Shown here: in pieces, positions 29,913 to 63,582 of the stretch
Position numbering within the stretch: the first letter of the stretch is position 1
How the letters are laid out: every line of letters begins with the position of its first letter
NCBI GenBank assembly: GCA_002269645.1
Contig: NIVC01001190.1
Coordinates: 276,428-340,427 of the forward strand
Direction of reading: 5' to 3'
Source of the DNA: Macrostomum lignano
Taxonomy: Eukaryota
DNA length: 64,000 bases
The notes under the pieces: generated by a model
What the model saw: the letters and a program-made list of their open reading frames with translations, nothing else
The model's database searches: none
What the model was told of the DNA's origin: nothing
Program-made: the position numbers and the translations under genes

Positions 29913-30033
29913 TGTGTGTGGCGACCCCAGTCTTTTGGCTTTCAAAAGCGGTACGCAGCCTTCAGAAGCGCCGCGCAATAGCTGCGGCTGAGCTGTCGGT
30001 TGCACATTTGTCTATTAGGGCAGGTGTAGTCAA

Positions 30034-30405
30034 AGTAGAAGGCATGAGGGGGCTTTTGGGACAAAATTTTTCACATCCTCCATAATTCCATTAAATCCAT
30101 CTATATTATCCCCGACAGAATCAGAAAAAAAGGAGGGTCGCACTCGCTCACAAAACGTCCTCCATAATCCCATTAAATCCATCCATATTATCCCTGACAG
30201 AATCAGAGCATAACAGGTGTCCTACTTGTTCCGAAAACTTCAAACATAATCCCATTATAATCCACTGACATCCACCCATAGCATCTTCGAAACAATCAGA
30301 AAATAATCTGCATTCTTCTCCCCACATTCAATCCGCAACGTGCTACCACATCCCTAAAACTTTAAATCCCCTAACCCAGGGTCCTTACCCATTGAAAAAA
30401 AAAAT
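30034..30405 (+). repeat. Polinton left TIR with internal ~75-bp iterated units
   Basis: Reverse complement of ~45630-46000, with repeated ATAATCCCATTAAATCCATCCATATTATCCCTGACAGAATCAGA. Confidence 0.93.
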
Positions 30406-30547
30406 AATTTTATTATTCATTAGTAAGAATTATATATTTATTAACGGTTGCACAGCTGATAGGATATGTATTAACTATTACAAGATTATCAAAAATGGTA
30501 GAAAAAACAGACACTATGTAGGATCTGTGTTAGAATTCTTCAACAAC

Positions 30548-30985
30548 ATACAGAGCCAGCCTAGCGTTCCTTTGAGCCAGCAGCTAGATTCTCTAACGCC
30601 GTTAGAATTTTCTATGTGAAAATTTGGTGTGCCCAAGCTTATCATGCGGGAAGCTTTTCACATAGAAAATTCTAACGGCGTTAGAAAATTTCTACCCCCC
30701 CCCCTCTATTTAACCATACAGAGCCAGCCTAGCGTTCCTTTGAGCCAGCAGCTAGATTCTCTAACGCGTTAGAATTTTCTATGTGAAAATTTGGTGTGCC
30801 CAAGCTTATCTTGCGGGAAACTTTTCACATAGAAATTTCTAACAGCGTTAGAATTTAAAACCCACCGACTGAGTTGCACACAGTACTGAGAAAATTGCTA
30901 CCCTCCTCTACTTAACCAATCGGCTGTCTCCAGTTGTTGAATCTTCTCTTTGAACTTCTAACGCGTTAGAAAAATTCTAAATGAA
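30548..30985. repeat. Tandem ~168-bp duplication, each unit with a long hairpin and TCTAACGCGTTAGA-type palindromes
   Basis: Perfect 31-bp arms at 30592-30622 and 30655-30685; second unit from 30716; another palindrome near 30957. Confidence 0.9.
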
Positions 30986-30998
30986 CTGAATTTAAAAA

Positions 30999-31676
30999 TT
31001 ACACAACTTTCCACGCAGGATCACTGGCCAAAATTTCTTCTAGAAACTTCATCTTAGAGTTTAGTTCCCTAATTGGCATTGACACCTGTCTCAAGCCTGG
31101 GTAGGTAACAGACAGTTTGTACAGACGAATGTACAAATAGCCAGTTGATTCCTGGATGTTTACATTTTTACACAAATGGGCGAACCGCACTTTAACATCT
31201 TGTCCAAAGTTCTCGGTGCGATAAGTTTTTAGCAGCCGCCCAACTTCGAGAATCCAATGTAGACCTCCAATTTGAGTCTTCTTGTATTTTGCTAGAGCCG
31301 CCTTCACCCTAGTGATGATGTTCTGCTCGCCAGATGGAAGCTGGTGATCAACAGCGTCCATCAGCTGATCAGCTAGTGTTACGCGGGATGCGTACAACTT
31401 CTCCCTGAATATCTGCAGATCCGCCATCTTCTTCTGCAGAGCCGCCGCCTTCTTCTCTTCGCTACTCACATTTTGCGCTTCATTCGCTGCGGCGATATCA
31501 TCAGGGGCCATGGCGAAAAACTCGATTGGTAGGTCGCCAGTTTCTAGACCGAAAAAGGTGGTTAGTTCCTCTCTTCTTCTTGCTTGTAGATGTGACGGAA
31601 TATCCTGTAAAACTCTTTGTAGCATGGCACAAAGGCCTTGCTTATCTGTCAAATGAAGATTCCACTCGACTTCCAT
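30999..31676 (-). CDS. Polinton accessory protein of unknown function (225 aa, helical)
   Basis: Intact ORF with an AAAATG start inside the element; no family recognised. Confidence 0.75.
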   Translation of the reverse strand: MEVEWNLHLTDKQGLCAMLQRVLQDIPSHLQARRREELTTFFGLETGDLPIEFFAMAPDDIAAANEAQNVSSEEKKAAALQKKMADLQIFREKLYASRVTLADQLMDAVDHQLPSGEQNIITRVKAALAKYKKTQIGGLHWILEVGRLLKTYRTENFGQDVKVRFAHLCKNVNIQESTGYLYIRLYKLSVTYPGLRQVSMPIRELNSKMKFLEEILASDPAWKVV

Positions 31677-32547
31677 TTTCTAAATCTTCTTGTCTTCTAA
31701 TCTTCTAGTTTGGCGGACAATTTCTTAGATCACTTTCAGCGTGCTAAGTTCCTGCAGTCGTCGTTTCTCAGTCGCAGTTGATGGCATATGCGGGGAGAAT
31801 CAACCCGAGTGTTTCTGCATTTGCTTAAATACAGCTATACAGCTAGAAAATTCCAGAAAATTCTAGACTGTACAATCTTGGAGTCAAGCAGGGAAAAAAT
31901 AATCGATATAGCTCAGTGAACGATAGAACATGAGGCGTGTGAATGTGAGGGTGAGCGATCGATTCCCTCCACCCGCTTGAAGTCCCCATACATTTCCTTG
32001 GTTGATTGGGTTTGTCAAAGCGGAAAGGAAAGCACGCGTGGAACTTGTACATTCGCAAAATCGATTAGAGGGCTGCGCTCCCTCAGCAAATAGCAGTTAC
32101 CCCACCCCCCTTCTGCTTCTACTTTTCAAAATGCAGCTGTTGCGCTTGGTTAGGGCTGAGAATAATAGTTAACCCTTTTTCCGACTCAAGCGCCTCTCTC
32201 TACCCCGCCCCATATCTTCATACCGTAGAGACCAACTAGGCGGGCCACATTCCGAGGCCAAATCGGCGGGCCGAGGCCAACTCGGCGGGCCAACTGGCCT
32301 CGCAATTTGGCCAATAATCAATATCAATCAAGGAGGGAATCTCAATATACACAGTCCATGCATGCTAATGGCGGCGAAGCGGTTGACTTTTTATTTTCTG
32401 CTCTTAGCTCTCTGGAGAATGAGAATCTCTCTTGTGCGCAACTCTTTAGGGAATAAAAAACTGTACTTACTCAAATCAACACTTGCTCATGCCCTTCCCG
32501 ATTCAAGCGCCCCTTTCTACCCCCAGCTCTTTCAGCAGTCTTCCCAA

Positions 32548-33003
32548 TTAATTGTTAGGAGCGCACAAAATAAACTCTGCTCCCGTGCGTTCGCCCTCTC
32601 TCCCCGTGCACTCGCCCTCTCTCCCCAAACACCCGCCCTCGGCGTACACCCCCAACCCCAGTTTTGTCTTACTAAAAATAACAGCTTTAACTAGCTTCCG
32701 AGCGATCGACTCACGAAATCCGCTTGAAATCCCCATATTGTCGAGTCTCCTGAGCATTTCTTTGTCCCAGCGATTCTTCTCCTCAGGAAAATCTCTATAT
32801 TTAACGTCATGCCACATGCAGACAGAGTCTAGCTCGTTCACAGGCTCATGCCCAGGATGTGGATTATTGTTTTTATCTAACTGTATTTCAAGTGGATTCA
32901 AAGGCCCGCAATATTTATAGCCGGGAAGTGTCCAGCCTTTGTTTGGATGAGGAAGCTTTTCTATCAGTCCATGTGAATCTATTTTACCACCAGAGCGCTG
33001 CAT
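32548..33003 (-). CDS. Parvovirus VP1u-like phospholipase A2 (PLA2X), ~151 aa
   Basis: WTLPGYKYCGP (Ca-binding loop) and VNELDSVCMWHDVKY (catalytic HD..Y). Start taken as MQRSGG at 33003. Confidence 0.88.
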   Translation of the reverse strand: MQRSGGKIDSHGLIEKLPHPNKGWTLPGYKYCGPLNPLEIQLDKNNNPHPGHEPVNELDSVCMWHDVKYRDFPEEKNRWDKEMLRRLDNMGISSGFRESIARKLVKAVIFSKTKLGLGVYAEGGCLGREGECTGREGERTGAEFILCAPNN

Positions 33004-33033
33004 TATTTTATTTAAAATTTTCTTTTTAAATAA

Positions 33034-34071
33034 ATGACAGATCAGAAACTTAAAAAACTCTACTACAGCGACAAAGGATTCTTTGTAGGCAAAAATGCCG
33101 TTAGTAAACTCATGGAGCTGAGTAAGGAGCCAAAAGCTACAGTAGAAAAATGGCTCTCTAAGCAGGCTGTCTTTCAAGTCTATTTCCCACCAGTAAAATT
33201 TGAAAGGCCCCATTTCAGTATTTATAAACCTAATGAAGCGCACCAAGCAGATCTTTTGTTTCTCCCCAACGACTCAGGCTACAAGTATGCTCTTACAATT
33301 ATTGACATTGCTTCCAGATATAAGGAAGCTCGCCCACTCAAGACGAAGAAGTCAGAGGTTGTTGCCAGCGCACTGCAAGATATTTATAAAAACTCTCCGC
33401 TCACATACCCCCAAATCTTTATGACCGACCCGGGTAAGGAATTCATGGGTGTAGTGAAATCCCTTATGGAAAAGAAAAACACAGAGATTCGCTATGGCAG
33501 AACAAACTTGCACAGAGACCAGGCTTTTGTGGAAAGATTCAATCTAACTCTAGCCAAGAGACTATTCACTAAGCAGACAGCGCAAGAACTCAAACTGAGT
33601 GCGGGGCAGTACTATACCAAGTGGACAGAAAGACTCCCCACTGTTATAGAGCAACTGAACAATGAAGTCACACGCATGACTGGATTGAAACCGTCCCATG
33701 CAATTAAACAAGACACTGTCGAACTTAAGGCATCTCATAGAACAGACAACAACACGACAACCCCACACAACACACACAACACAAAACACACCTCGAACTA
33801 CCCTAAGCTTCCAGGAGTTGAATCACCATACATACTGACAAACTCTGAGTTTCTACGCTTTTTATATCTACCTGGAGAGCTAGAGAAAGACACCAAAAGA
33901 AGAGCTACAGATCCATACTTCAGCCTTGATGTGCATAAAATAGACAGACATTTTACCTCCGACTCCGGTGACTATTACTTTTTATCTCAAGCCTTTAACC
34001 CTAAATCCCCCACGCGGTCATTCACTAGAGCTGAACTCCTAGTGATACCAGCTGACACAGAAATTAATTAA
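33034..34071 (+). CDS. Retroviral-like (rve) integrase of the Polinton, intact, 345 aa
   Basis: DDE motifs HQADLLFL, FMTDPGKEF, QAFVERFN. Confidence 0.95.
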   Translation: MTDQKLKKLYYSDKGFFVGKNAVSKLMELSKEPKATVEKWLSKQAVFQVYFPPVKFERPHFSIYKPNEAHQADLLFLPNDSGYKYALTIIDIASRYKEARPLKTKKSEVVASALQDIYKNSPLTYPQIFMTDPGKEFMGVVKSLMEKKNTEIRYGRTNLHRDQAFVERFNLTLAKRLFTKQTAQELKLSAGQYYTKWTERLPTVIEQLNNEVTRMTGLKPSHAIKQDTVELKASHRTDNNTTTPHNTHNTKHTSNYPKLPGVESPYILTNSEFLRFLYLPGELEKDTKRRATDPYFSLDVHKIDRHFTSDSGDYYFLSQAFNPKSPTRSFTRAELLVIPADTEIN

Positions 34072-34087
34072 AATATTAAAATAAAAA

Positions 34088-34533
34088 ATGACAAAGATTG
34101 AAACCAGAACCATCAATAAACTCAATAAAATCATTGAATCAAAGAAACCAGGTCTTATATCAATTAAAGGTGCCAAAGTAAAAGTCGATCCCGTGCAGCA
34201 AATAGTTCAGTGTAATGAGCAAAGACACAGCATCACAGATGAAAAGTCAGGAGGAATCCTACCATTAGCAGCTCTTATCCCAATCATTGCAGGCGCTGTA
34301 AGTGCCGCAGGTGGTGTAGCTGGAGGTGTAGCAACTGCTGTTAAAGCTGGGAATGATAGGGCTCACCAGCTAGAATTGCAAAAGATTGCAAGAGACAAAG
34401 GTATAACAATTAAGGCAGGAGAGGGCTGCCCCGATCGTGATGATTGTGAGAATGAAAATTCTATAAGCAAGTCTGACATTGTCAAAGCATCATGACACTG
34501 CACAATGCTGGGTTTACAATAATGCGCATGTGA
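34088..34533 (+). CDS. Adenovirus pX/mu-like virion core protein, with a 1-nt frameshift near the 3' end compared with copy 2
   Basis: SGG|ILPLAALIPIIAGAVSAAGGVAG resembles the adenoviral pX tail GGILPLLIPLIAAAIGA. The copy at 62992-63438 is intact at 148 aa. Confidence 0.7.
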
Positions 34534-34656
34534 TGAGGTTTAAAACCCCACTTTATCCAGCTTCATAAACCTAGCGCTACTTATAGGATGTAGAAACAGT
34601 TCAACTTTTCTATCAGGGTGGTCACCCTCAAAAATTTTTTTATTTTAGAGAAAAAA

Positions 34657-37600
34657 ATGCCAAAAGCTAATCCAGCAAAAGATTTAGTCAACAAACATTT
34701 TTCAAAAGGCGTCTCATTTCAAGACAAAAGTAATTTACTAAGAGAAGCATGTAAACAAAAGTTTAACACCGACCCTGGTCACCTGGGAAGCTATGAAAAA
34801 CAGTTGGAAATCATCAATCAATTAGAATCCAACCAGTATGCGCCTATAAAAATCCTGCAAAGGAACACCAAGAGAGGAGTCGCAACTTAGTTAACAAATA
34901 CGAAACTCTCACTGGTGAAAAAGCAAAGTACCCACAAAATAAGCAGGAACAAGAGAAATTAGAGCAATTAATCCATTTAAAAGAGTCGGAGCTTGCCACT
35001 GAAGAGATTAATTTTGCACAGAGGAAGTTTACAGAACATTACATAGAGTACACAATCCCAATTAACGGCACCAACGGCACCACCGCAAACATCTACGACT
35101 ATAAAGACAGCATCCAATCAGTTGTTGATCACACACTCAAAACACGCAAGACTTTAAACTACAGATATCATTCAAGATTGCGTTTTATATGCCTGCAAAA
35201 CCCACTGAGCATCTCGAGTATTACATGACAACAAAGGCAAAGCCATTCACCCCTACAGACACACTGGATCCTTTCCTTCAAGATGTCACTAAGAAAATTG
35301 AAGCGTTTACATCCAGAGGTTCCGGATGGGTCGTGGAGGGATTCAAAGAGCGACTGTCATGGTCATGAAATATGACCCACTTAAAGCCTCCTCTTATATA
35401 GAGCTCCCGCATAAGCTAGCCGGTAAAAAAGCTTGCATAAATGTTAAAAATAAAGACAATTGCTGTGCTCTATGGGCAGTTCTTTCTGCACTTCTTCATG
35501 ATAGTGTACCTCACCACCCCGAAAGAACCTCAAATTATCAAAATTATTTCAACTACTATCTCATCGAATGCGAAAAGAAGGGAATCAGGTTTGACAAAGG
35601 AGGCTTGGCGATCTCTCAGATCCCAAAGCTAGAAGAAGTGTTTAATAACAAAATTAGAATCACAGTCTTTGAGTGGAGTGAAAAAACTGAGAAAGTTCAA
35701 CCGGTCAGATGTAGCAAAGACGTTTTAGATCCGAGGGGAAAAGGCGGACTGAAGTGGATCTTCTAGTGATTGGTAATTTACTAGAGGAGGCTCACTATGT
35801 TTGGATTAAAGATCTTTCAAGACTCATTCACAAGCAGTTGAATAATCATCACGAGGCTGTTGCCATCTGCCGCTTGTGCCTTAAGCATTACAGTGGACCT
35901 GAACGCTTTGAAAAACTAACAGAGCATGAATTATCGTGCGAGGATCACCCAACAAACTGCTCTCTTCCTTCAGCTGAAGAGAAGTATCTCCGGTTTAAGA
36001 ACTATCACAAGATGGAGAAGCTCCCATTTGTTGTATATGCTGATTTCGAATGCTCAATCGTGCCAGAAACTCAAAAACAAACTCCAACTCAAAAACAAAC
36101 TCCAACTCAAAACAAACTCAAACTCAAAAACATATCCCCAATTCAGTAGCATATGCCTTTATTAATACAAAAGGACTTGTTGAGTATAATTATTTCTTTG
36201 GAGAGCAGTGTGTGGAGCAGTTTATTGCCAGAATGTTAGAGTTGCAAAAGTGATTAGCACCCTTCAACCTGTTCCAATAATGATGACTGAGGAGGATGAA
36301 AGCAATTTCCTATCAGCAACTCATTGCCACATCTGCAGGAAACATTTAACTTGCACTAATATTAAAAACCCCACCGTTAGGGACCACTGCCACTTTACTG
36401 GGAAATTTAGAGGTGCAGCGCATAACACCTGTAATCTAAAGCTAAAATCGAACATTCATGATCTAACGATATTTTGTCACAACGCAAAGAACTATGACAT
36501 GCATTTAATAGTTGAAAAAATCGGCATGATTCCAGACATACACCTTGATGCATCGCAGAGAACAAGGAGAAGTTTAAGTGTGTTGATATTAAACAGGATA
36601 ATTCGGGTACAGGTAAAATAAGACTGAAGGATTCATATCAATTTCTAGCTGCCAGTCTAGACGAACTAAGCAAGAATCTAAAAGATGAACAATGTACATA
36701 TACAAAGATGTTTGCAAGTAAAATTAACAACACTGATGAATCATTTAAACTTTTAAGAAAGAAAGGCTTCTACCCCTATGAAAATATTACTGGGTATCAC
36801 GTATTTGAAGAAGGTTTACCACCACAGAAAGTTCTTTTCAAAGCTAACAGACTCTGGAATCTCTGACAAAGACTATGAGCACGCGAAGCATGTCTATAAT
36901 TACTTTAATTGTCAAAACTTCTTCCAGTATCACCTGCTTTACCTCTACACAGATGTGTTTCTGCTGGCCGATGTGTTTGAAACCTTCAGATACACCTGGT
37001 ACACAGCATATGGCCTCGATCCAGCACATTATGTGTCTCTGCCTGCCACTAGCTGGGAATCTTTGCTTAAAATGAAATGGGATCAAGATCCAGATTGGTA
37101 CATTGAACTTCTTACAGACATTGACATGTACAATTTTGTCGAATCGTCAAAGCGAGGGGGATCTCAATTTGCGTTAACAGGTATGCAAAAGCAAACAATC
37201 CCTACATTGAATCTTACAATAAGGAGCAGCCCTCAAACTACATTACTTACTTGGACGCTAATAATCTCTACGGGTGGGCGATGAGTCAAGATCTTCCAGT
37301 TAGAGATTTTCGATGGCTACCCTCATCAGAATTAAAGTGGGACTTTTCATTGGCTGCCATTTATGAGTTGATGTTTACATTCCACCAGAGCTTCACGACT
37401 ATTTCTCTGACTTTCCACCCTTCCCAGAGAACATCAAGTGCCCGAAAATAATCGAAACTCCCAATGATAATAATGGAACTTGGCACCTGTCAGGAACAGA
37501 AAAAGAACATACAGAGAAACTAACACAGAATCTAAACAACAAGACACGTTACAAAATCCATTACAAACTGCTTCAGTATTTTATCTCACTTGGTTGCAGG

Positions 37601-38532
37601 GTCACCAAAGTTCACGGGCTCTTACATTTACAGAGGAAGCGTGGATGAAACCCTACATTGATAAGAACACCCAGTTTAGGACCAAAGCAACCAACGACTT
37701 TGACAAGAACCTCTTTAAGTTGGCCAACAACTCTGTCTATGGCAAGACTCTTGAGAATGAGCGGAAAAGAACAAACCTGAAACTTGTTACCTCATCAGAG
37801 CCTGCTGTTATTCAGGCAAATATGTCAAAGCCAACATTCAAAGAACTCCATATCTTTAATAGCTACTTAGGTGTGATCATATTTTACAAAACCAAGGTGA
37901 CGCTGCGCAAGCCGATCTATACAGGTGTCACTGTTCTCGACGAATCAAAACGTCTGATGTACCAGTTCTTCTATGGCATGAAGCAGCAGTACAAGGATAA
38001 AATGAAACTCTTGTACACTGACACAGACAGTTTTATTATGGACATTCAAACAGAAGACATTTATCAGGACATGCTGCAGCAAAAAGATTTGTTTGACTTG
38101 TCTGAGTATGATGAATCTTGCAGGACACAGAATGGCGATCAAGTGTTTGACGCCACTAACAAGAAAGTGATTGGGAAAATGAAGGACGAGATTGCTGGTG
38201 ACATAATCACTGAATTCATTGGGTTGAGAGCAAAGTCCTATTTTGTAAAATGTGAGTCGTCAGACCCAATTAAAAAATCAAAGGGAATTCCGAAACGTGT
38301 GGTTAGGAAGGAAATTAATGAAGCTGAATACAGAGACGCCTTGAATTGCAACAAAAAGACATCACATGAGTTCTCAAAGCTACAATCTAAAAACCATATT
38401 ATTCACACAATTCAGCAAAAGAAGATTGGACTGTCAGGTGCAGATAACAAGAGATTCATTTTTGATGACAATATCAACAGTCTACCGTTCGGGCACTGGA
38501 GGTTAGGTTTAGGAGGTGGATATTGGGTTTAG
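34657..38532 (+). pseudogene. Protein-primed family B DNA polymerase (pPolB), with multiple frameshifts
   Basis: Motifs occur in order across frames: FTSRGSGW, YDPLKASSYIELP, VVYADFE (ExoI), RDHCHFTGKFRGAAH, HNAKNYD (ExoII), YTDVFLLADVFE (ExoIII), DANNLYGWAM (A), KLANNSVYGK (B), LYTDTDS (C). Confidence 0.95.
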
Positions 38533-38565
38533 GTTTGAGAGAAAGTTTAATAAACCTCATAAAAA

Positions 38566-38966
38566 ATGACGACAAATAACTTTCTTGAAGATTTGGCTAA
38601 CGAACTGGAAATCCCAAACTTTAGAGGAATATTTATGAGGGACACTCTGCCTGATTTTCCTCTAAGAAAGGAATGCGGCATCATGAACTTTGACACCACC
38701 GATAAGCCAGGATCTCATTGGGTTTGCTGGGTGATTGATCCCGATCGCAAGCACAAGTGTTATTACTTCGATAGCTATGGGACGGCAGTACCAGAAGAGC
38801 TAAGAAATTATATGAAGGGAAAAAATAATAAAAAAATTTATCGCTCAGACTTTATTCTCAAGGTCTTAGCAGTGATATTTGCGGTGAGCTGTGCATGACT
38901 GTTTTGTATGCAATGACCAAAACACGAAAGACCTACAAGGAAATTATTCTTGGCTGTGTTTCATAG
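38566..38966 (+). pseudogene. Adenain-like (C5) cysteine protease with one frameshift
   Basis: GSHWVC (His) and YFDSYG (Asp), then after a shift near 38860, QGLSSDICGELC (Gln/Cys); TAG at 38964-66. Confidence 0.88.
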
Positions 38967-38969
38967 GGT

Positions 38970-39617
38970 TCATTGTGCATTTCTCGTTGTACTTCTCGTT
39001 GTCCTTCTTTCCACATAATGTTGAAGAACTTTCTCGAGTTCATTTCTCAGCTGACTCATGTCATCAGTACCGACCATGTTCAAGTTCATTCGAATTGATT
39101 GTTCATAAAGATCCTGAATGGTTTTGAACTCATCCTCTGAAATGAACTTATCCTCGATTGCCCTTGAAATGTACCCTATGATTGATGTGTGCACCCCTTT
39201 CTCTTTTACTTGCTTCTCCTGTAGCTGCTTTAGTTTTTTTCGCCTGTTTCGCGCTAATGCTCCAGTAATTGCTGAAATAAGTCCACATGCAGCACCCACA
39301 GAGCCGAGCGGGATTGCGATTGGGGCTGTGATGGCTGGCAACACTGAGACAGCTGCAGCAGATCCAGATAGAACAGACACAGATCCTAGAATCATATTGC
39401 TGTAGTCGAAAAATTTACAGTGGTTGTCATAGCGCTTAATTTTCTTTGTGTTGTGGAAAATATTTTTTTCAAGATCATCGCGCATTTTTTGAATCTCCAC
39501 CAGTCGAAACTGTTGAGAGTTACAAGTAATGACGGGGTAAAGTTTTTGTTGCTCATATTGGGGTGCACTAGGTGCTGTGGGAGCATTCGGATCATAAAGA
39601 GAATTTTGAGCATCCAT
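38970..39617 (-). CDS. Polinton membrane protein (coiled coil + two hydrophobic helices; possibly the family called GasderminX in adintoviruses) with PTAP/PSAP motifs
   Basis: Intact from MDAQ. Contains FRLVEIQKM, hydrophobic stretches MILGSVSVLSGSAAAVSVL and IAIPLGSVGAACGLISAITG, and ISRAIEDKFISEDEF. Confidence 0.78.
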   Translation of the reverse strand: MDAQNSLYDPNAPTAPSAPQYEQQKLYPVITCNSQQFRLVEIQKMRDDLEKNIFHNTKKIKRYDNHCKFFDYSNMILGSVSVLSGSAAAVSVLPAITAPIAIPLGSVGAACGLISAITGALARNRRKKLKQLQEKQVKEKGVHTSIIGYISRAIEDKFISEDEFKTIQDLYEQSIRMNLNMVGTDDMSQLRNELEKVLQHYVERRTTRSTTRNAQ

Positions 39618-39724
39618 TTTTAGAGAATTTTTAAAAAAAATTGACAACTCGTTGGTGGTGGTTAGATTTGTTTTACGTTTGATTGTTTCGTCTGCAGTTG
39701 GCAGGTCTCTTCGAATCTACCTAT

Positions 39725-40521
39725 TTATTTGTCTATGCGCTCCATTCTACACTTGATCTCAAACAAACCGGTTGGCTCACGAAATTTTGGGTTAGTGGTC
39801 AAACTGGTTGGCTCACGAAATTCGTGGTCAGTGGTCAAGTCGGTTGGATCACTTATTTCCCTTGTGGTCTGTGGTGCCTCTTCAACAGTATCAATATCAG
39901 GAAGATTGTGTCTTCAAGACGACTGATTCTTCTCAACGATTTCTGCCATTCGGTAAAAATTAAATCTAAAAGACTTTAATTGCATCAAGTCTTTCTTTAT
40001 TCTATCATGCAACGATGTTGACTGAGTCATGAACTCTTCTAAATTCCTCACTTTACCTGTGTTGGTTGCGACGTTTTCTTTAATTCTATCATGCAACGCT
40101 GTTGACTGGTTCATGAACTCTTCTAAATTATTTACTTTAGCTCTGTTTGTGAAAACTCCTTCTTCAAGAATACGCATCCGTCTATCAGTGGAATTTCTCA
40201 GAAGATTAATTGTCGATGTTAACCGTTGATTTGCGAGACTGCCGAAGTTATTTCTGACCTAAGTTCATTAGTTGCGTGTACAACCTGTACATAAAGCTTA
40301 TCACTTTCAAACTTCTGCCTGGCTACTTTTATGCGGAGATCTTCTATGTTTATCTGTAGCTGGTGCATGGAGCGCTCTAATTGTTTCAGTCTGTTTTTAT
40401 TCAGTTTGATCTCTGGGATCTCTTCGTCGCTGTTGATATATCGCCTGTCAAGGATGGATATTTGAGCTGATGTAAGAGCGCTGTTGCCAGAAATGGATTC
40501 ACCTGCAAAGTTTATCGACAT
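39725..40521 (-). pseudogene. Coiled-coil protein with an internal repeat, frameshifted
   Basis: ORF pieces 40219-40521 and 39914-40177; repeated segment NRAKVNNLEEFMNQST..HDRIK / NTGKVRNLEEFMTQST..HDRIK. Confidence 0.6.
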
Positions 40522-40537
40522 CTTTTAATAGCAAATT

Positions 40538-41309
40538 TTAAATTACAGTTCTTTTTTCTTTGCTGATAATCACAAACTGGTAAGGCTGATTCCACTTGTC
40601 ATAGCAAAGATTAACGAATTCCTCTGTGAAATCTTTCTGCTTGAGTTTTTTGTTGGATTTATGAAATAGGCAGGCGCAATGACCTCATTGTAAAATCTTT
40701 TTAACCTGTCCTGTGGAATGGTTGGAAACAGGAGAATCAGATTGCAGTTCCCACGAATTGTTTTGTTCGGGAGCTCGAACCAGTTCTGTGCAATGTAAAT
40801 TACATTACAATTGTTATGTCGTCCTCTTGTAAAATAGTTTTCTATCTGCTTCTGTGGGCCTGTCATACAATCATCAAAGACGATCAAATGCTTTCTCCCC
40901 TTTTCTAGCTCATCTGGTTGGGGTAGAAGTTTGGTCTTTGGATCAGCCTGTGGATCTCCATAGGTGAACACTTTAATGTTCTGCCATTTTTCATTGTCTT
41001 TGAGGTGCTTTGCATATTCGGCAGCTACAATTTCAGGGTTACTGGGAAGGCTCATTTGGTTATTAAAACATGCAATAATGTCCTCTTTGTTCAGCTTGTT
41101 TTGAAACCCTGCAATCCTGGAGAGTAGATGTGCAGAGTGTCATAGTCGATAAAGCCAGGTCTAAGAAGCATGTTAAAGACTCTGAATGTTTTACCTGAAC
41201 CTGATGAACCAACAACAATGCATCTGAAATGACTCGGAATTGACTCGTGATGAGAAAACTTAATCTGATTACGCGTCCAGTGAGGATTGAAGTCGTTTGA
41301 AAAGTCCAT
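40538..41309 (-). pseudogene. A32/FtsK-like genome-packaging ATPase with ~2 frameshifts
   Basis: Walker A GSSGSGKT, Walker B LIVFDD, FTRGRH, IYIAQNWFELP, and C-terminal LCYDKWNQPYQFVII. Confidence 0.92.
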
Positions 41310-41349
41310 TTTTTCTATGATGAAAAAAAATTTAAATAATAAATAATGT

Positions 41350-41515
41350 AGATGTGTCATTTCGGGACTTAGATGTGTCATTTTGGGACTTAGATGTGTC
41401 ATTTTGGGACTTAGATGTGTCATTTTGGGACTTAGATGTGTCATTTTGGTACTTAATTGTGTCATTTTGGGACTTAGATGTGTCATTTTGGTACTTAATT
41501 GTGTCATTTTGGGAC
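41350..41515. repeat. 21-bp minisatellite (TTAGATGTGTCATTTTGGGAC)n inside the Polinton
   Basis: About 8 units between the ATPase start and the stop of the upstream ORF. Confidence 0.93.
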
Positions 41516-41558
41516 TAGTCTTGTACCTTTACATTTCTTGTACCCTCGGAAAGTACCT

Positions 41559-41948
41559 TTAGTCAAATTTGAAACCACTTCCTTTTTTAATGCTAGCTCT
41601 CATCTTCTCATAGACTGCAGGGTCCACACTGTCTGGATTTGGGGCCAGTGGGGCCAGCGGGGCCAGTGGAGGTTGAATATCTTGTTTAGGTGTTACAGTA
41701 TCCTTTATCTTTTTGGCTGCTGTGGCTACACTGCCAGCCGCTTCGGCAACGTTCTTGATGTTCTCTTTGTTCTCTCCAATGACCTTAAAAATCTTGGCCC
41801 CCTGAGCGATCAAATCGGCAAGGCCATTCCCAGAGCGTTCTTTTCTTGGATAGTGGCCTGCAGGGAAAAGTCCAGATCCGCGTTTCATGAGATTAAGTTC
41901 CTCTTTGTCATAGTATTTGTCCACGTCTTTCTCAAAAATAATCGGCAT
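41559..41948 (-). CDS. Small virion-core-like protein with GxG candidate protease sites and an amphipathic helix (~129 aa)
   Basis: RGSGL, SGNGLADLIAQGAKIFKVIG, KGSGF and a PPLAPLAPLAP tract. Confidence 0.7.
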   Translation of the reverse strand: MPIIFEKDVDKYYDKEELNLMKRGSGLFPAGHYPRKERSGNGLADLIAQGAKIFKVIGENKENIKNVAEAAGSVATAAKKIKDTVTPKQDIQPPLAPLAPLAPNPDSVDPAVYEKMRASIKKGSGFKFD

Positions 41949-41964
41949 TTTTACTTGAAATAAA

Positions 41965-43161
41965 TTATTTTTTGTTGAACCGCGAAAGCAGAAGCTCTCT
42001 CGCCCTCTTATCGATGTATTTTCTCTCAAGCATTTTGTCTAGGATGTTGACAAATTCTTTTCTATTTTCATCTTTCATTCCGGTCTTTGCTGCACCTAGA
42101 AGAACCGCTACTCGCTTGTAGATTTCAGAAATTCCTTTTCCAGTTGAGGGCGGTTGGTCTTGGGGTTGTGGAGTTGGTTGGGCTTGTAGCTGCTGGGGAG
42201 GTGATGCAAAAGACTGCTCACTTTCAGAGATGGAACTGTCATGTGGTGCCTGTCTTTGTTGAGGTGTGAAAACTCTTTGCCTGATTCTGTTCATTCGATC
42301 TGGAGAGTGTTGTTCTAAGTGTTGCCAATCTGTTGGGTTTTGTTTCTTATATTCAGCTACTTGAGTCGGATCTGCATTTTCCAGTTGCCTGAGTACTTCT
42401 GTGAAATGTTGCTGCTGCTGTGGTTGTGGTTGTTGTTGCTGTTGTTGTTGTTGTTCTAGATATTTTATGACTTCCCCCTGATCTGGCAAATCGAACCATT
42501 GTTTAAAGTGATTGTACTTTTTGAATCTAGTCAGGTTGACACCGTTATCATACATAAGTCTCAGGACTTCTGGGGCCTTTAGTATTGCTATATCTCTAGC
42601 AAGAGCAAAAGTCACTAGATCTCTATAGTTCTTTAGCTGTTTGTCCGAGATTCTCTCTTGGTTCTTGGTCATAAAAGTCAGTAAGGTTTCTGTGAAAGGA
42701 ATGCTCTTAGTTTCCGAGCCTTTGACAACAGAAATATGTTTCTTATTTATGTCGATATAATATTCCACTGGTTCATTATAAATGTTTCTTCTCCACATAC
42801 TTATTCCAAATACATATTTCCCATCATGTTCGACACGCTCTACTGGTCCAAAAATGTTATCTGTCACTTTTAGTTGTGATTGATGTGGTTGTGGTTGTTG
42901 TGGTTGCGGCTGTATCTGTGGTGCTTCTGGAATTTTGCCCAAAACCTTTTGCACTTGGGTTTCCTGTATGTCGTCGATAGTTTCTTTGACCTGATCAATA
43001 TTTTTCTTAGCTTCTCCATACCCGGGTTTATGAAACTCTGTGGCTGCTTGGACAAACTCATTGTAGGATTGTTGCTCCTTATTTATTAGCCTGGTAACTC
43101 GTTTCTCTGCTTGTGCTAGCTTCTCCAATTCAGATATCTGCTGTGTACTTTTTCGCTTCAT
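41965..43161 (-). CDS. Q/P-rich Polinton conserved protein (PZ-like), intact, 398 aa
   Basis: C-terminal TGKGISEIYKRVAVLLGAAKTG...EFVNILDKML resembles the common Polinton motif RL.LL.....AG...EI..I..L. Confidence 0.7.
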   Translation of the reverse strand: MKRKSTQQISELEKLAQAEKRVTRLINKEQQSYNEFVQAATEFHKPGYGEAKKNIDQVKETIDDIQETQVQKVLGKIPEAPQIQPQPQQPQPHQSQLKVTDNIFGPVERVEHDGKYVFGISMWRRNIYNEPVEYYIDINKKHISVVKGSETKSIPFTETLLTFMTKNQERISDKQLKNYRDLVTFALARDIAILKAPEVLRLMYDNGVNLTRFKKYNHFKQWFDLPDQGEVIKYLEQQQQQQQQPQPQQQQHFTEVLRQLENADPTQVAEYKKQNPTDWQHLEQHSPDRMNRIRQRVFTPQQRQAPHDSSISESEQSFASPPQQLQAQPTPQPQDQPPSTGKGISEIYKRVAVLLGAAKTGMKDENRKEFVNILDKMLERKYIDKRARELLLSRFNKK

Positions 43162-43192
43162 TTCTTATTTTATTTTATTTTTAGTTAAAAAA

Positions 43193-44479
43193 ATGAACGA
43201 CCCACTGACACCAGTTTTCTACAAGATTAACAAGCCTATTTTGAGTGATGATAGCACAATCAAAGCGACTCAGGTAAGAGTTCCCAGTCAGGAAAATCAG
43301 AATGAAACTAATCTTGGTCCTGGTCAAACACTGACATTTACATACAATGGATGTTCGTCTTTGGTTAGTGTGCACAGTCTTAAGAGCGGCTTCCATATGA
43401 CATTTCAATTCAAGACAAAGGGTGGTGCGGATGCGGCTCGTGCTAACGTTGACAAGCATGATGCGGATGTGGCTCTGATCAGTAACTTTTGGGCGTACAT
43501 GTTCAAGGAGTTTAGTGTATCGAATGGGAGCACTGAGTTGGAGCGAATCGCCAACTTTGGAATTGTCTATGACGCTCATTGTTTGATCGAGAATCCTGAT
43601 TTTATTCAATTGGGAAGTGGTGCGGGTTTTATTGCAGACGAAAAAGAAGGAGATACCAATGACAGTGGCTATAAAAATAGGAAGAAGAGATACAACTATG
43701 CATTGCAAGGTGCTGATGATGCTGCTAAGAACCCGCTGTATCGGTCTGTTGATGTATTTGTACCATTAAGATTCATGAGTGGATTCTGTAATACATTTAA
43801 TCGACTGACTAGCAACTTTAGCTACACATTTAGACTGACTAGAGATGATCGCAGTAGAGTGTTGTGGACTGGGGCGGACCACACAAGGATGGAGGTGAAG
43901 CTAACCGGAATCGAGCTGTATTTGGAAGTCATTGAGCCAAAGACTGCACTAAAAGCGGATTATCTCAAGGCAATAGAGAAGGACATTGATGTTGCATACA
44001 CAGCCTACATGTGTCGAGATGAGCGAAACGAAACTAGAACAAACATCTGCATTAAAGAGGGATCATGCAGCAATCCAAGGTATATCATTATTAACATGAG
44101 AAACCCAAATAGCATTATCCGCTACATGCATGGAGACGTGCGGTCCATTCAGCATGAAATCAGTGATAATCTTTACCCTGCACTGCCACAAAATGGAGAT
44201 TTCAGTCAGAACAAGATTAGCAAATTTTACAGCGAGTTGGTCGACTTGGCTGTGAAAGAGAACAATGGAATTGCTATCACTGCTCTTCAATATGGAACTC
44301 TATATCCAATGTTTGGAGCTGATGTGTCTGCCAGACAAATGCCTACTGATAACAGCCCTGTGAATATCGTGACTAACATTGAAAGGACTGCCGCAACACC
44401 CGTGGACCTGTACATTATCTATGCATTTGAGAGGAAGGTGAAGCTTAACATGATCAACAATTCATCCAGTGAAGTTTAA
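43193..44479 (+). CDS. Major capsid protein (double jelly-roll, PY/hexon-like), intact, 428 aa
   Basis: Size, beta-strand-rich composition, position next to the penton, and motifs such as VFVPLRFMSGFC, FRLTRDD and YPMFGADVS. Confidence 0.85.
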   Translation: MNDPLTPVFYKINKPILSDDSTIKATQVRVPSQENQNETNLGPGQTLTFTYNGCSSLVSVHSLKSGFHMTFQFKTKGGADAARANVDKHDADVALISNFWAYMFKEFSVSNGSTELERIANFGIVYDAHCLIENPDFIQLGSGAGFIADEKEGDTNDSGYKNRKKRYNYALQGADDAAKNPLYRSVDVFVPLRFMSGFCNTFNRLTSNFSYTFRLTRDDRSRVLWTGADHTRMEVKLTGIELYLEVIEPKTALKADYLKAIEKDIDVAYTAYMCRDERNETRTNICIKEGSCSNPRYIIINMRNPNSIIRYMHGDVRSIQHEISDNLYPALPQNGDFSQNKISKFYSELVDLAVKENNGIAITALQYGTLYPMFGADVSARQMPTDNSPVNIVTNIERTAATPVDLYIIYAFERKVKLNMINNSSSEV

Positions 44480-44500
44480 ATATTTTTTTTATGGGTGAAA

Positions 44501-45367
44501 AAAATGGAAGCGATTGCTGAAAGACTAAATAATATTGTTTCTCACTCCAAGGAGAGCATTCCTATTACAATAACTGGGCGAATTAATGACTCAAACGGGA
44601 TATTTATTCAAAAATTAGAGCAGGCGATTCGCCTGGATCCAGGTGCTAATTACCATGTCTATCTTAACGACTTCACTGGTTGGTCAAACGTTCCCAATGT
44701 GATGGCAGCAAATAATAAGTTTTATTACAAATGGAAAGGTGCAGCAGCAGAACCTGTGGTATTCCCTGTTAGCACGCAAAGTGTGGATACCTACAATTAC
44801 TTTCTAGAAAACGTCTTTACTAAGAGAGGCCATTTTGAGACACCTGATGCGAGTAAGCCAGAGAAGAAACTGTTCCCTGTCAAACTATCCTATGATCTCA
44901 CTGTAATGAGAGTGGTCATGCAAGTTCACAAAGATGCGGAGGTTGAGTTTAAAGATGACACTTGGTATAGGGAACTGGGATTCGAGAAGAAAGTTTATAA
45001 GGCAGAATCCGCGCCGCGGACCGCCACTCAAGCGTCAGGGGCCGTTAGCATGGCCCGGGAAAACGTAAGCGGTTTGTTCTTAGCACCCAATATAGCAGAC
45101 ATTGTAAAGGGTTTGAATATTCTAATCAGAAGCAATCTCAGTCTTGATTGGGTATTTAAGGGAAAGCGAACGAATATTTTGTACAACATCTCCAACTCTG
45201 TTGCTGGAGGACAGATGGTGGTAGAGAAACCAAATCCAGTGAAAAGAGTTGTATTGAGTAATAAGGAGATTCACGAGATTGTGCTACAGTTTGAGACTGA
45301 AGATGGGATGGGCGTTGATTTTAATGGGGAAGAGTTTGTATTGACGTTGATCATTGAAAGAATGTAA
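44501..45367 (+). CDS. Minor capsid protein (penton, PX), intact, ~288 aa
   Basis: YHVYLNDFTGWSNVPNV...NNKFYY, ILIRSNL, ILYNI, and EIVLQFETEDG..VDFNGEEFVLTLII. Confidence 0.88.
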   Translation, partial: KMEAIAERLNNIVSHSKESIPITITGRINDSNGIFIQKLEQAIRLDPGANYHVYLNDFTGWSNVPNVMAANNKFYYKWKGAAAEPVVFPVSTQSVDTYNYFLENVFTKRGHFETPDASKPEKKLFPVKLSYDLTVMRVVMQVHKDAEVEFKDDTWYRELGFEKKVYKAESAPRTATQASGAVSMARENVSGLFLAPNIADIVKGLNILIRSNLSLDWVFKGKRTNILYNISNSVAGGQMVVEKPNPVKRVVLSNKEIHEIVLQFETEDGMGVDFNGEEFVLTLIIERM

Positions 45368-45374
45368 GAAAAAA

Positions 45375-45614
45375 TTACAATTGTCTAATGATTTCTGCAA
45401 AGTTATAGTAGCTGTCGTAATCTTTTACATAGGTTACTCCATACTTATAAAACCAGTGTCTTTGGAGAGCTTGATTAATATTAGGGACATTGATATCAAC
45501 ATCGGGCCAATGTTTTCTCATGTACTCGCTGCATTCAAGTTTGCATTGGTACTTGGATTTGTACAATGGATTAGGCTGAGTATAATAAGAACCTGGAGAG
45601 ACAACTGGAAACAT
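45375..45614 (-). CDS. Small TIR-proximal ORF (79 aa, Tyr-rich), unknown function
   Basis: Preceded by TTCTCTAAAAATG, as is the 2-TM gene. It differs from copy 2 at 5 aa, against 8 aa for the antisense frame. Confidence 0.6.
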   Translation of the reverse strand: MFPVVSPGSYYTQPNPLYKSKYQCKLECSEYMRKHWPDVDINVPNINQALQRHWFYKYGVTYVKDYDSYYNFAEIIRQL

Positions 45615-45629
45615 TTTTAGAGAAAATTT

Positions 45630-46000
45630 ATTTTTTTTCAATGGGTAAGGACCCTGGGTTAGGGGATTTAAAGTCTTAGGGATCTGGTTTCGCCGCTTCG
45701 GATTGAATGTGGGGAGAAGAATGCAGATTATTTTCTGATTGTTTCGAAGATGCTATGGGTGGATGTCAGTGGATTATAATGGGATTATGTTTGAAGTTTT
45801 CGGAACAAGTAGGACACCTGTTATGCTCTGATTCTGTCAGGGATAATATGGATGGATTTAATGGGATTATGGAGGACGTTTTGTGAGCGAGTGCGACCCC
45901 CCTTTTTTTCTGATTCTGTCGGGGATAATATAGATGGATTTAATGGAATTATGGAGGATGTGAAAAATTTTGTCCCAAAAGCCGCCTCATGCCTTCTACT
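45630..46000 (-). repeat. Polinton right TIR
   Basis: Reverse complement of 30034-30405, with a diverged patch around 45675-45700. Confidence 0.93.
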
Positions 46001-46430
46001 AGTCTATATTTTTATATTTAATATTAGTTATTATAAGCTTAAAAAATTAAAATTTCGCTAACAGCGCTTTCGAAAAGAACAATTTTCATCGAATTAACTG
46101 TTAATAATCTGTTTGACGCGCCCAGCTCTTGTTGTTGCTTGGAGTTGTTTTCCATTTATGCTCGCGAATCAAGCGGATGCGACAAGGGCATAGAAACCCC
46201 ACACAATTTTGCTAATTCCAGAGGCAAATATGGTGCACTGTCTTGTAAAGCGATGCACTAATAGCGTAGAAACGTTTTACTCTCATATCCTCAATGCAAG
46301 CGGTAAGAAAGCAACTGCTTATTGCTGAAAAGTTAAAGCGCTGGATAGAGCCCCTGTTGGAATATACTTTTTAGAATGCAACTATTGCTGCACACATGCT
46401 GTGGGGGCGGCGGTCAGAAGTCTCTAGCAA

Positions 46431-50311: not shown

Positions 50312-50325
50312 TTGGAAGTCAAACA

Positions 50326-59900: not shown

Positions 59901-60422
59901 TGTCAAGCTTAATCAGAAGCAGTACATAACCAAACTGCTTGAACGCTATGGACTTGCAGAGGCGAACCCAGCCTTAACTCCGATGGATCCCAACGTAAAA
60001 CTAGCCAAATACGACGAGGGCAGCAAGCCAGTTGACTCTACAGTTTACCAGTCAATGGTTGGAAGCTTGCTCTATGCAGCAACTGCTACACGTCCAGACA
60101 TCTCGTATGCAGTGGGAGTTGTCTCCAAGTTCAACAACAAACCAAGAGAGATACATCTAACCGCAGTAAAACGAATCTTCCGATACCTAAAGGGAACAAT
60201 CGACTTTGGCCTAGAGTACAACTCTAGTGTAGAGAACTTGATCGGCTATTCTGATGCAGACTGGGCGAGTGACGTAGATGATCGACATTCCACCTCTGGC
60301 ATCGTGTTTAAGCTATCTGGTGGCGCTATCAGCTGGCTTAGCAAGAAGCATTCAACTGTCTCACTCTCGACAACGGAAGCTGAGTACGTTGCGCTGAGCT
60401 CTGCAGCACAAGAAGCCATGTG
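56980..60422 (+). mobile_element. Ty1/Copia LTR retrotransposon (5' LTR 56980-57203; PBS 57204-57217; gag-pol 57308-60422), defective
   Basis: TG..CA LTR of 224 bp; PBS GATTATGAGCCCAG; gag KLGSGNWTTWK; LWHQRLGH; integrase IHSDICGP/RTDGGGEY/QQNGVAER; RT QMDVVTAFLNG/YVDDL; RNase H YSDADWA...TEAEYVAL. Confidence 0.95.
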
Positions 60423-60880
60423 AGTAGAAGGCATGAGGGGGCTTTTAGGACAAAATTTTTCACGTCCTCCATAATCCCATTAAATCTATCCATATTATCC
60501 CTGACAGAATCAGAAAAAAGGTGGGTCGCACTCGCTCACAAAACATCGTCCATAATCCACCTAAATCCATCCATATTATCCCTGACAGAATCATGAAAAA
60601 GGGGAGGGGCCGCACTTGCTCCAAAAACTTCGAACATAATCCCATTAAATCTATCCATATTATCCCTGACAGAATCAGAGCATTATCCCTGACAGAATCA
60701 GAGCATAACAGGTGTCATATAATCCACTGACATCCACCCATAGCATCTTCGAAACAATCAGAAAATAATCTGCATTCTTCTCCCCACATTCAATCCGAAG
60801 CGGCGAAACCATATCCCTAAGACTTTAAATCATCAGCGCAGGGTCCTTACCCTTTGAAAAAATCTAAATTTTCTCTAAAA

Positions 60881-61120
60881 ATGTTTCCAGTTGTCTCTCC
60901 AGGTTCTTATTATACTCAGCCTAATCCATTGTACAAATCCAAGTACCAATGCAAACTTGAATGCAGCGAATACATGACAAAATATTGGCCCAGCGTTGAT
61001 ATCAATGTCCCTAATATTAATCAAGCTCTCCAAAGACACTGGTTTCATAAGTATGGAGTAACCTACGTAAAAGATTACGACAGCTATTATAACTTTGCAG
61101 AAATCATTAAGCAATTGTAA
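60881..61120 (+). CDS. Copy 2 of the small TIR-proximal 79-aa ORF
   Basis: Five aa differences from 45375-45614. Confidence 0.6.
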   Translation: MFPVVSPGSYYTQPNPLYKSKYQCKLECSEYMTKYWPSVDINVPNINQALQRHWFHKYGVTYVKDYDSYYNFAEIIKQL

Positions 61121-61462
61121 TTTTTCCTACATTCTCTCAATGATCAACGTCAATACGAACTCTTCACCGTTGAAATCAACACCCACTACTAAAAGGAGTA
61201 CTATATGCTAGGACTACTATTTGTAGATAATGAGTTTTTGTTTGCGACAAATATCCGACAAACTGCCGGATTTTTTTGCTCAACAAAAACTGTCGGAAAA
61301 CTGCCGGAAAACTGTCGGAAAACTGTCGGAAAACCACCTCAAATACTGGAAAATGCACTGTCGATGTACGCAGTCTCTATTTGGCGTGTGCAATGCAAAT
61401 CCCCCTCCCGGTTCTCTCTTCTCCCAAACAGCCGCCAATCCAGCTGAATTTTCTTACTTGAA

Positions 61463-61910
61463 TCATTCTGCTCTCTCAACCCCCAGCTCTTTCAACAGTC
61501 TTCCTAATTCTTTACTTGGTGCGTGCAACGCAAAGCCCACCCCTTCTCCCAAACCAACCCCCAACCCCAACTTTGCCTTACTAAAAATAACAGCTCTAAC
61601 TAGCTTTCGAGCGATCGATTCCTTCCACCCGCTTGAAGCCCCTATATTGTCTAGTCTCCTAAGCATTTCTTTGTCCCAGCGATTCTTCTCCTTAGGAAAA
61701 TCTCTATATTTAACGTCATGCCACATGCAGACAGTCTAGCTCGTTCACAGGCTCATGCCCAGGATGTGGATTATTGTTTTTATCTAACTGTATTTCAAGT
61801 GGATTCAAAGGCCCGCAATATTTATAGCCGGGAAGTGTCCAGCCTTTGTTTGGATGAGGAAGCTTTTCTATCAGTCCATGTGAATCTATTTTACCACCAG
61901 AGCGCTGCAT
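61463..61910 (-). pseudogene. PLA2X, copy 2 (2-nt deletion just before the HD motif)
   Basis: GACAGTCTAG here versus GACAGAGTCTAG in copy 1. Confidence 0.85.
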
Positions 61911-61940
61911 TATTTTATTTAAAATTTTCTTTTTAAATAA

Positions 61941-62973: not shown

Positions 62974-62991
62974 AATATTAAAATAAAAAAA

Positions 62992-63438: not shown

Positions 63439-63582
63439 ATGTGAATGTGAAAGTGATGAGGTTTAAAACCCCACTTTATCCAGCTTCATTAACCTAGCGC
63501 TACTTATAGGATGTAGAAACAGTTCAACTTTTCTATCAGGGTGGTCACCTCAAATCAAATTTTTTTTATTTTAGAGAAAAAA

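Follow-up and report, generated by a model that had tools for sequence, protein, structure and literature searches.

A frameshifted adintovirus-like Polinton and a neighbouring copy of its family in the flatworm Macrostomum lignano

We analysed a stretch of 64,000 nucleotides from Macrostomum lignano (assembly GCA_002269645.1, contig NIVC01001190.1, positions 276,428 to 340,427 of the forward strand; hereafter the window), which contains a Polinton of 15,967 bp at 30034-46000 (copy 1) and the left part of a second element of the same family (copy 2). On balance, we favour the view that the two belong to a multi-copy family that has recently been mobile in this Macrostomum flatworm and that has a virion-type life cycle, most of the breaks in its reading frames being errors of the assembly.

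That copy 1 is an element of the Polinton or adintovirus-like class is almost certain, and both this class and the boundaries given in an earlier reading of the same DNA (the original prediction) are borne out by its anatomy and gene set. The terminal inverted repeat (TIR) arms, expected at 30034 and 46000, are found there, with a length of 307 nt and a complementarity of 99%. When the TIR pair is aligned over 379 columns it is 96.8% identical, each TIR being about 377 bp long; the outer 300 nt contain 2 substitutions and no indels, and the inner 76 nt contain 6 substitutions and 3 indels. The target-site duplication (TSD) that had been predicted would be a pair of 6-bp flanks, with one mismatch between left and right (5 of 6 bases identical), and 27 of 4,000 neighbouring flank 6-mers match as well by chance. 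Copy 1 is mostly richer in A/T than the nearby host gene.

The second copy, which had been placed about 14 kb away, begins 14,422 nt past the end of copy 1. Since it starts inside the pol frame of a decayed Copia retrotransposon, it represents a separate insertion. Over their common body the two copies differ by 66 substitutions in 2,388 columns, that is, they are 97% identical over the aligned columns. For the integrase we count 19 synonymous and 10 non-synonymous differences (a ratio of non-synonymous to synonymous rates, dN/dS, of 0.14), and the dN/dS values of the pX gene and of the 79-aa gene are 0.21 and 0.25. The 3' end of the penton gene has 6 synonymous differences and 1 non-synonymous difference, and PLA2 has 7 synonymous and at most 11 non-synonymous ones in 116 codons. 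Pooling six genes or pieces of genes gives about 39 synonymous differences at 437 sites and about 25 non-synonymous differences at 1,648 sites. The low dN/dS means that purifying selection acted on the family during the divergence of the copies. Two independent insertions, a low divergence and selection on the integrase thus agree with the recent family activity that had been proposed. Furthermore, a near-identical MCP fragment (94-96%) of 157 aa with an internal deletion is present in the protein library. The interrupted Copia element itself contains a stop in its frame near 58909 and seems to have lost internal segments.

The copies differ at their left ends. The first 763 bp of copy 2 are a mirror image of the right end of copy 1 and take in its 79-aa gene as well as the 3' end of its penton gene, whereas the left end of copy 1 has instead the 377-bp TIR followed by 2.1 kb of different sequence that holds the 225-aa gene. 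Such variable left ends are likely to have arisen by end-copying during strand-displacement replication. The variable region of copy 1 also contains a direct repeat of 140 bp (30547-30686 and 30715-30853, 96%) and many short palindromic motifs.

Read from left to right, copy 1 carries a 225-aa orphan gene and PLA2 (both on the minus strand), the integrase (INT), pX, the protein-primed DNA polymerase (pPolB) and the protease (PRO; all plus), then the genes of a two-transmembrane (two-TM) protein, a coiled-coil protein, the ATPase, a protein with GxG motifs and a 398-aa protein (all minus), the major capsid protein (MCP) and the penton (plus) and finally the 79-aa gene (Table 1). The PLA2 and integrase genes are arranged head-to-head, 30 bp apart. 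All of the 13 correctly placed start codons that entered our start-codon tests (the ATPase start was left out) have an A at position -3 and an A-rich context, compared with 11% of 576 background ATGs, and this shared context speaks for the orphan frames being genes that belong to the element. A trans-splice-acceptor signal in front of the starts was considered and rejected, as it precedes 2 of the 13 starts against a background of 5.7%.

Table 1. Positions of the features of copy 1, of copy 2 and of the retrotransposon that copy 2 interrupts (coordinates of the window)
Feature	Position	Strand	Basis or remark
Left TSD, 6 bp, differs from the right one at one base	30028..30033	.	flank comparison
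Left TIR, begins AGTAG, internal subrepeat with a period of ~82 bp	30034..30411	+	
Variable left region, absent from copy 2	30412..32547	.	
225-aa gene, open, no family assigned (cargo)	30999..31676	-	A-rich start context as in core genes
Stand-alone parvovirus-type PLA2, 151 aa	32548..33003	-	PF08398 E=4e-13
Retroviral-type integrase, open, 345 aa	33034..34071	+	PF00665 (rve) E=2e-8
pX-like core protein, with a frameshift close to its end when compared with copy 2	34088..34495	+	PF05829 E=4e-7
Protein-primed DNA polymerase, Alpha / pPolB1 type, endonuclease-VII-like insert, 12 pieces	34657..38532	+	
Adenain-like cysteine protease, frameshifted near 38860	38566..38966	+	PF00770 E=0.002, below cut-off
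Two-transmembrane protein, 215 aa, open	38970..39617	-	hydropathy
Probable coiled-coil (fibre- or cement-like) gene, 28-residue repeat, 2-3 pieces, 3' end uncertain	39725..40521	-	
A32/FtsK-type packaging ATPase, broken	40538..41309	-	PF04665 E=0.002, below cut-off
21-bp tandem repeat between ATPase and GxG gene	41349..41516	.	
Basic 129-aa protein, three GxG motifs, amphipathic helix, open	41559..41948	-	
398-aa gene, open, head-to-head with MCP	41965..43161	-	
Double-jelly-roll MCP, open, 428 aa	43193..44479	+	PF21738 E=2e-5, fold model
Probable penton (minor capsid protein), open, 287 aa	44504..45367	+	position, size, weak fold matches
79-aa gene, open, adjoins right TIR, retained in copy 2	45375..45614	-	
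Right TIR, terminates CTACT	45623..46000	-	
Right TSD	46001..46006	.	
Decayed Copia retrotransposon, pol frame cut by copy 2	57308..60422	+	Pfam gag, rve, RVT_2
Copy 2, left part, runs off the window	60423..64000	+	PLA2, INT, pPolB with own frameshifts

The gene inventory of the original prediction, including the PLA2, the pX-like protein and the two-TM protein, is supported by Pfam, hydropathy and layout. As for its list of core genes, the integrase, pPolB and MCP stand, while PRO and ATPase are represented by matches below the cut-off (E about 2e-3) and the penton is assigned from its position, its size and a weak fold similarity. Among the Pfam matches, PLA2, integrase and pX score above the curated cut-offs and the MCP scores slightly below (24.4 versus 27 bits); Peptidase_C5 and Pox_A32 are the best matches of the protease and the ATPase, both on broken genes. 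The polymerase has its Exo and Pol motifs in order and collinear with its relatives, though it is in 12 pieces; its piece at 35353-35718 is 41% identical to the corresponding region of the Megastigmus PolB, and Pfam finds in it no match to the N-terminal OTU domain that characterises the PolB of Alpha adintoviruses. The His and Asp of the protease lie in its first piece, and the segment which we take to hold its Cys motif is out of frame. Walker A and Walker B of the ATPase are in different frames, and both main pieces of this gene weakly match one and the same terminase PHROG. The coiled-coil gene has weak coiled-coil matches in Pfam and PHROGs, and its product is probably fibre- or cement-like.

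A model of the MCP, calculated from an alignment of 32 rows (pLDDT 86.9), has a double jelly roll and matches the capsids of virophages, iridoviruses and PBCV-1, with the Sputnik MCP as the best PDB entry (Foldseek E=1e-17, TM-score 0.66). The identity to these named viral proteins is 6-13%; sequence and profile searches against the PDB sequences gave nothing significant, and it was the fold search that placed the MCP. The model of the penton, made from a single sequence, is of low confidence (pLDDT 33.8), and 2 of at least 500 fold matches have E<=0.001, namely those to a minor capsid protein and to a MELD virus protein (best E=8e-4).

Among the accessory proteins, PLA2 has both the YxGP loop and the HD dyad, and its alignment with the VP1 unique region (VP1u) of adeno-associated virus (E=0.014) includes the calcium loop and the dyad; in copy 1 it ends just short of a small tail which is in frame in copy 2. 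The two-TM protein has Atlas feature scores of 0.93-0.94 to viral and mollusc clusters, just below the level of reliable recognition, and could thus belong to a family that is widespread among eukaryotic DNA viruses and in the genomes of invertebrates. No usable match was found for the 398-aa gene in Pfam, Atlas or PHROGs, and its C-terminal helical motif is presumably similar to a conserved Polinton protein that has no assigned function. For the 225-aa gene there was no significant match in Pfam, PHROGs, PDB or phage records, and the likeness to DUF3102-like domains that we had assumed received no support from the search. Pfam has no gasdermin match among the proteins of the element. The 129-aa protein had been described as a GxG-cleaved amphipathic protein. 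Three GxG motifs and an amphipathic stretch are indeed there (111 of 10,000 shuffles equal the segment 43-60, a window picked after inspection), but it lacks a canonical adenain site: its motifs fit neither of the forms of the adenain cleavage motif, (M/I/L)xGxG or GG, that are given in the part of bioRxiv 341131 used here, and canonical motifs are found in none of 8 proteins of the element. Searches of Pfam, PHROGs and PDB gave no significant family or structure match for this protein, which by analogy may be similar to cupiennin or to protein VI.

We then looked at the relatives of the capsid protein and the polymerase. Nine of 4,024 candidates match the MCP, seven of them at 70-78% and two at 43-44%, and none is informatively named; an exhaustive search gave 104 representatives, 5 of them at E<=1e-30. 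In a quick tree of 63 rows, from which matches under 380 aa were left out, the MCP belongs to a clade of 6 rows within a clade of 9 rows, both with 100% SH-aLRT support. Judged from these sequences, the MCP lineage has no named member among the matches and appears to be new, as do the stand-alone PLA2 and pX and the variable left ends of the element. The C-terminal piece of pPolB is 41-49% identical to 120 relatives among the matches listed, which include the PolB of the Megastigmus wasp adintovirus as well as insect, spider and sponge proteins. On the pPolB tree (47 rows, consisting of the query, the best 40 of the 120 matches listed and the named ones) its branch is long and not firmly placed. 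A beta-type polymerase, which would be less than 30% identical to the Alpha type, was rejected, given an identity of 44% to the Alpha-panel Megastigmus PolB over 297 aa in a comparison made with the Alpha type alone.

The reading frames of copy 1 show about 17 breaks within 34488-41140 (6.65 kb), which affect pX, pPolB, the protease, the coiled-coil gene and the ATPase. There are none in the integrase or in the block 41289-45367, where the end-to-end check against relatives covers the MCP only. The polymerase falls into 12 pieces in successive frames, as seen by tblastn with 10 of the 120 relatives listed and with copy 2; nine of the 11 frame changes follow from alignments with homologues, one from copy 2, and one is forced by frame bookkeeping. 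Besides the protease, which is broken once, the ATPase has a break near 41110-41140 and probably another near 40650, pX has one towards its end, and the coiled-coil gene has one or two; the breaks of the protease and the coiled-coil gene and the second one of the ATPase were read by eye, without homologues. Ten of the 11 frame changes of pPolB go in the same direction (p=0.012). Its 3,711 nt contain no stop codon, where 3-6 would be expected at an assumed 5-10 substitutions per indel, 5.5% of substitutions giving a stop. Seven differences between the coding sequences of the two copies break a frame, and in every one of them the broken copy is the one with the loss. Since pPolB has no stop codons, many of the about 17 breaks may be assembly errors; we think it rather probable that most are deletions introduced by the assembly and not mutations, and a few lesions may be real.

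Whatever their origin, these breaks bear on the statement that the element is complete. Its layout and gene set are recognisable, but the term is an overstatement because genes for replication, maturation and packaging are frameshifted in this sequence, with pPolB in 12 pieces and frameshifts in the protease, ATPase, pX and coiled-coil genes. In PMC8097293 an intact, potentially active Maverick is defined by TIRs, a 6-bp TSD and all core open reading frames being open (here and below, published sources are cited for the excerpts used). By this definition copy 1 is not intact, as its pPolB, PRO and ATPase are frameshifted.

Polintons have been recorded in flatworms before. PMC10748475 reports 748 polymerases of the pPolB1 type in 8 of 73 flatworm genomes, and its Supplementary Table 3 has 253 integrase-linked pPolB rows (175 + 78) from two assemblies, both of which are from M. 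lignano according to PMC11589783. The layout of copy 1, that is, an integrase of 1,038 nt just upstream of pPolB, occurs in 12 of these 253 rows, as counted by eye from the coordinates. Nine of the 12 have pPolB frames of 905-1,178 aa, and the other three have frames of 1,257, 1,312 and 1,312 aa, in a table that leaves out frames shorter than 900 aa. Many M. lignano rows of the table belong to another Polinton family, with a pPolB of 1,221 aa and a near-constant integrase score (about 428), which suggests that this family is younger and more homogeneous than the one in the window. Insertions of this kind in Rhabditophora and flatworm Polintons are also mentioned in bioRxiv 2025.04.19.649669. 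We found no paper on a Macrostomum Polinton, Maverick or endogenous virus by title and beginning of the abstract, a search outside of which lie the repeat tables of genome papers as well as Repbase and Dfam, where the family may already have a name. The excerpt of the PMC8502044 supplement mentions neither Macrostomum nor Platyhelminthes, Schmidtea or flatworm, and those of PMC11071296, PMC11131425 and bioRxiv 2026.10.13.758929 contribute no information on the host or its Polinton accessory genes. The suggestion that the host lineage is undescribed therefore stands insofar as no paper names Macrostomum Polintons, and fails insofar as 253 rows from M. lignano are in PMC10748475. The accessory set, for which the same had been suggested, is described: PLA2, pX, cupiennin-like and SLATT-labelled genes all appear in PMC8502044, and the arrangement alone differs.

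The gene set suggests the following life cycle. The rve integrase would insert linear DNA and leave a 6-bp duplication, as the anatomy indicates. The protein-primed polymerase would then copy an excised linear element, starting at the TIR ends, a mode established for the class (terminal-protein-primed replication from the ends, PMC11161782). Judging from homology, MCP and penton would form a non-enveloped capsid, the ATPase would package the DNA, pX may be a core protein that condenses it, and the protease would mature the particle; MCP, penton, ATPase and protease are together the module known from Polintons (PMC4028283). On entry, PLA2 and the amphipathic GxG protein might breach the endosome as VP1u does in parvoviruses and protein VI in adenoviruses. 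The two-TM protein may have membranes as its target, and its two hydrophobic helices and nameless Atlas neighbours are the basis on which it may have a role in egress. As sequenced, copy 1 would be unable to run this cycle because of its about 17 frameshifts.

Several observations weigh against the interpretation that we prefer. The breaks are clustered (p about 1e-4, for a block picked post hoc) at a similar density of homopolymers (5.2-8.7 runs per kb in the open blocks versus 6.0), which is not expected of plain random error. Some of the indels have a length of 2 or 4 nt or occur away from long runs, and neither the Copia RT frame nor the host BTB gene is interrupted over its 1.2 kb, though both have few homopolymers. 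The mismatch in the TSD and the PLA2 stop indicate substitutions, and the agreement with the rows of PMC10748475 is one of coordinates, not of sequence. Potentially, all breaks could be real, both copies being dead and decaying by slippage-biased deletion in A/T-rich viral DNA. Private frameshifts in both copies (among them the indels of 2 or 4 nt) and the two signs of substitution just named would fit this explanation, as would the shortened pPolB frames (905-1,178 aa) of 9 of the 12 rows with the same layout, which come from two separate assemblies, and the fact that vertebrate Mavericks are mostly degraded (PMC8097293). On the other hand, the lack of a pPolB stop, the one-sided frame changes and the near-identical outer TIRs imply that substitutions are far below what is normal for 11 indels, and we regard decay of this extent as unlikely, although less so than the alternatives that follow. 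Another explanation for the clustering would be domestication, or a non-autonomous, helper-dependent element, in which the capsid block and the integrase are kept open while the replication genes decay. The genes INT, GxG, 398-aa, MCP and penton are open and the about 17 breaks fall into one block of 6.65 kb, as this would require. However, the breaks occupy one continuous block without regard to function, so that ATPase, PRO and pX, which a capsid needs, are among the broken genes, and the integrase is broken in copy 2. A mosaic or low-quality segment of the assembly is a simpler cause of the clustering, and domestication seems to us very improbable.

The virion-type life cycle can be questioned as well. 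The family is known here from its genes in genome sequence, the roles in entry and egress come from analogy, canonical adenain sites are absent, and Maverick particles have not been observed (PMC8097293). It might thus be an intracellular DNA transposon only, with capsid and entry genes that are recent relics or are used elsewhere. Against this speak an MCP of full length that is 71-78% conserved across several relatives and the purifying selection between the copies on pX, the 79-aa gene and the 3' end of the penton gene; a dedicated PLA2 whose catalytic motifs are intact would also be hard to explain without an entry step. We therefore doubt that the element is a transposon only. Equally doubtful, at the other extreme, is a reading that goes beyond our preferred one, in which the elements would form a polintovirus lineage that is specific to flatworms, ranks as a genus and has a capsid clade to itself. 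Its entry kit would be a mixture of PLA2 and pX, each standing alone, with a protein VI-like peptide and the two-TM protein, its left-end cargo would be swapped by end-copying, and there would be intact copies and particles in M. lignano. If it were true, there would be a culturable laboratory animal for testing whether animal Polintons form virions. Whether they do is a long-standing question, and M. lignano, where many Polinton polymerases with long frames are recorded (other families there have more full-length rows in PMC10748475), is a candidate place to look. Taken as a single locus, this is a Polinton of the ordinary kind, broken in part, in a genome with many of them, and its value is that of a pointer.

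The surroundings of the Polinton in the window contain host genes, other transposons and simple repeats. A probable host exon lies at 29296-29802 on the minus strand, 230 bp from the left TIR (its Pfam match is weak and probably spurious), and copy 1 may be within an intron of a minus-strand host gene. Tandem genes with PAN-apple and fibrinogen-C (FReD) domains are found at 14364-15325, 17559-18053, 19890-20333, 24270-25316 and 53546-54759; they are 78-87% alike and spaced by ~5 kb, with one member past the Polinton, and are possibly an immune gene cluster. A MATH-BTB gene in a single frame (558-1769) is 98% identical to a named Macrostomum lignano protein, and all 4 of its matches come from this species, which points to M. 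lignano or a very close relative as the host. Fragments of a piggyBac-type transposase (PF13843) and of a hAT transposase (PF05699) lie at 56037-56985 and 50277-51574, respectively, and transposase-like fragments without Pfam matches near 46856 and 49651. Two minisatellite arrays, at 22165-22895 (units of 21 bp) and 27053-27765 (units of 25 bp), are inverted, ~4.3 kb apart and 78-80% alike, and may represent the two ends of an element of the foldback type. Dense mini- and microsatellites with units of 4-33 bp occupy 1893-12075, 15723-16309, 20926-21201 and 26015-26453.

Finally, we compared copy 1 with the named systems. With the Polintons or Mavericks as characterised in PMC4028283 it shares a length in the range of 15-20 kb, TIRs, pPolB and the rve integrase, and also the ATPase, the protease and a double-jelly-roll MCP; their 6-bp TSD and the single-jelly-roll penton next to the MCP have probable counterparts in the 6-bp flanks with one mismatch and in the 287-aa protein. 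It differs from them in being frameshifted and in having an MCP from a clade of sequences without names, and its ends read AGTAG, where vertebrate Mavericks have (AG)3 or (AGT)2 (PMC8097293). Adintoviridae, now called Eupolintoviridae, is a family of the class Polintoviricetes (PMC12451622). The likeness to the Alpha adintoviruses is seen in the polymerase, whose pieces align from residue 231 to the end of the Megastigmus PolB with 27-56% identity, and in the presence of PLA2 and pX. The Megastigmus adintovirus is in the Alpha panel by the labels of Fig. S2 in PMC8502044, and many of the pPolB matches listed carry PF03175, the mark of the Alpha-type PolB. In contrast to the fused PLA2X of Alpha adintoviruses, PLA2 (-) and pX (+) are separate here and flank the integrase, and there is no named adintovirus hexon among the 9 MCP matches. 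According to PMC8502044, PLA2X is typical of Alpha virion modules (the fused form being characteristic of Mayetiola-class modules) and GasderminX and Cupiennin of Beta ones, but modules mix; SLATT genes are labelled on some maps, and there are cnidarian Alpha elements with Cupiennin and SLATT. The small amphipathic GxG protein and the two-TM protein can be likened by description to those of the Beta-type module and of the cnidarian Alpha elements. Differences from the Beta-type module are that a gasdermin match is missing here and that PLA2 is typical of the other module type. The membrane-entry genes are arranged unlike both the published Alpha and Beta modules. The pPolB1 Polintons of M. lignano, for which PMC10748475 gives coordinates without a name or description of the family, share with copy 1 the 1,038-nt integrase directly upstream of pPolB in the 12 rows described above; in two of these the offset from integrase to pPolB is 1,562 nt and pPolB has 1,312 codons, within a few bases of this element. 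In summary, copy 1 is like an Alpha adintovirus and has most of the defining features of Polintons, but it is not an intact one.

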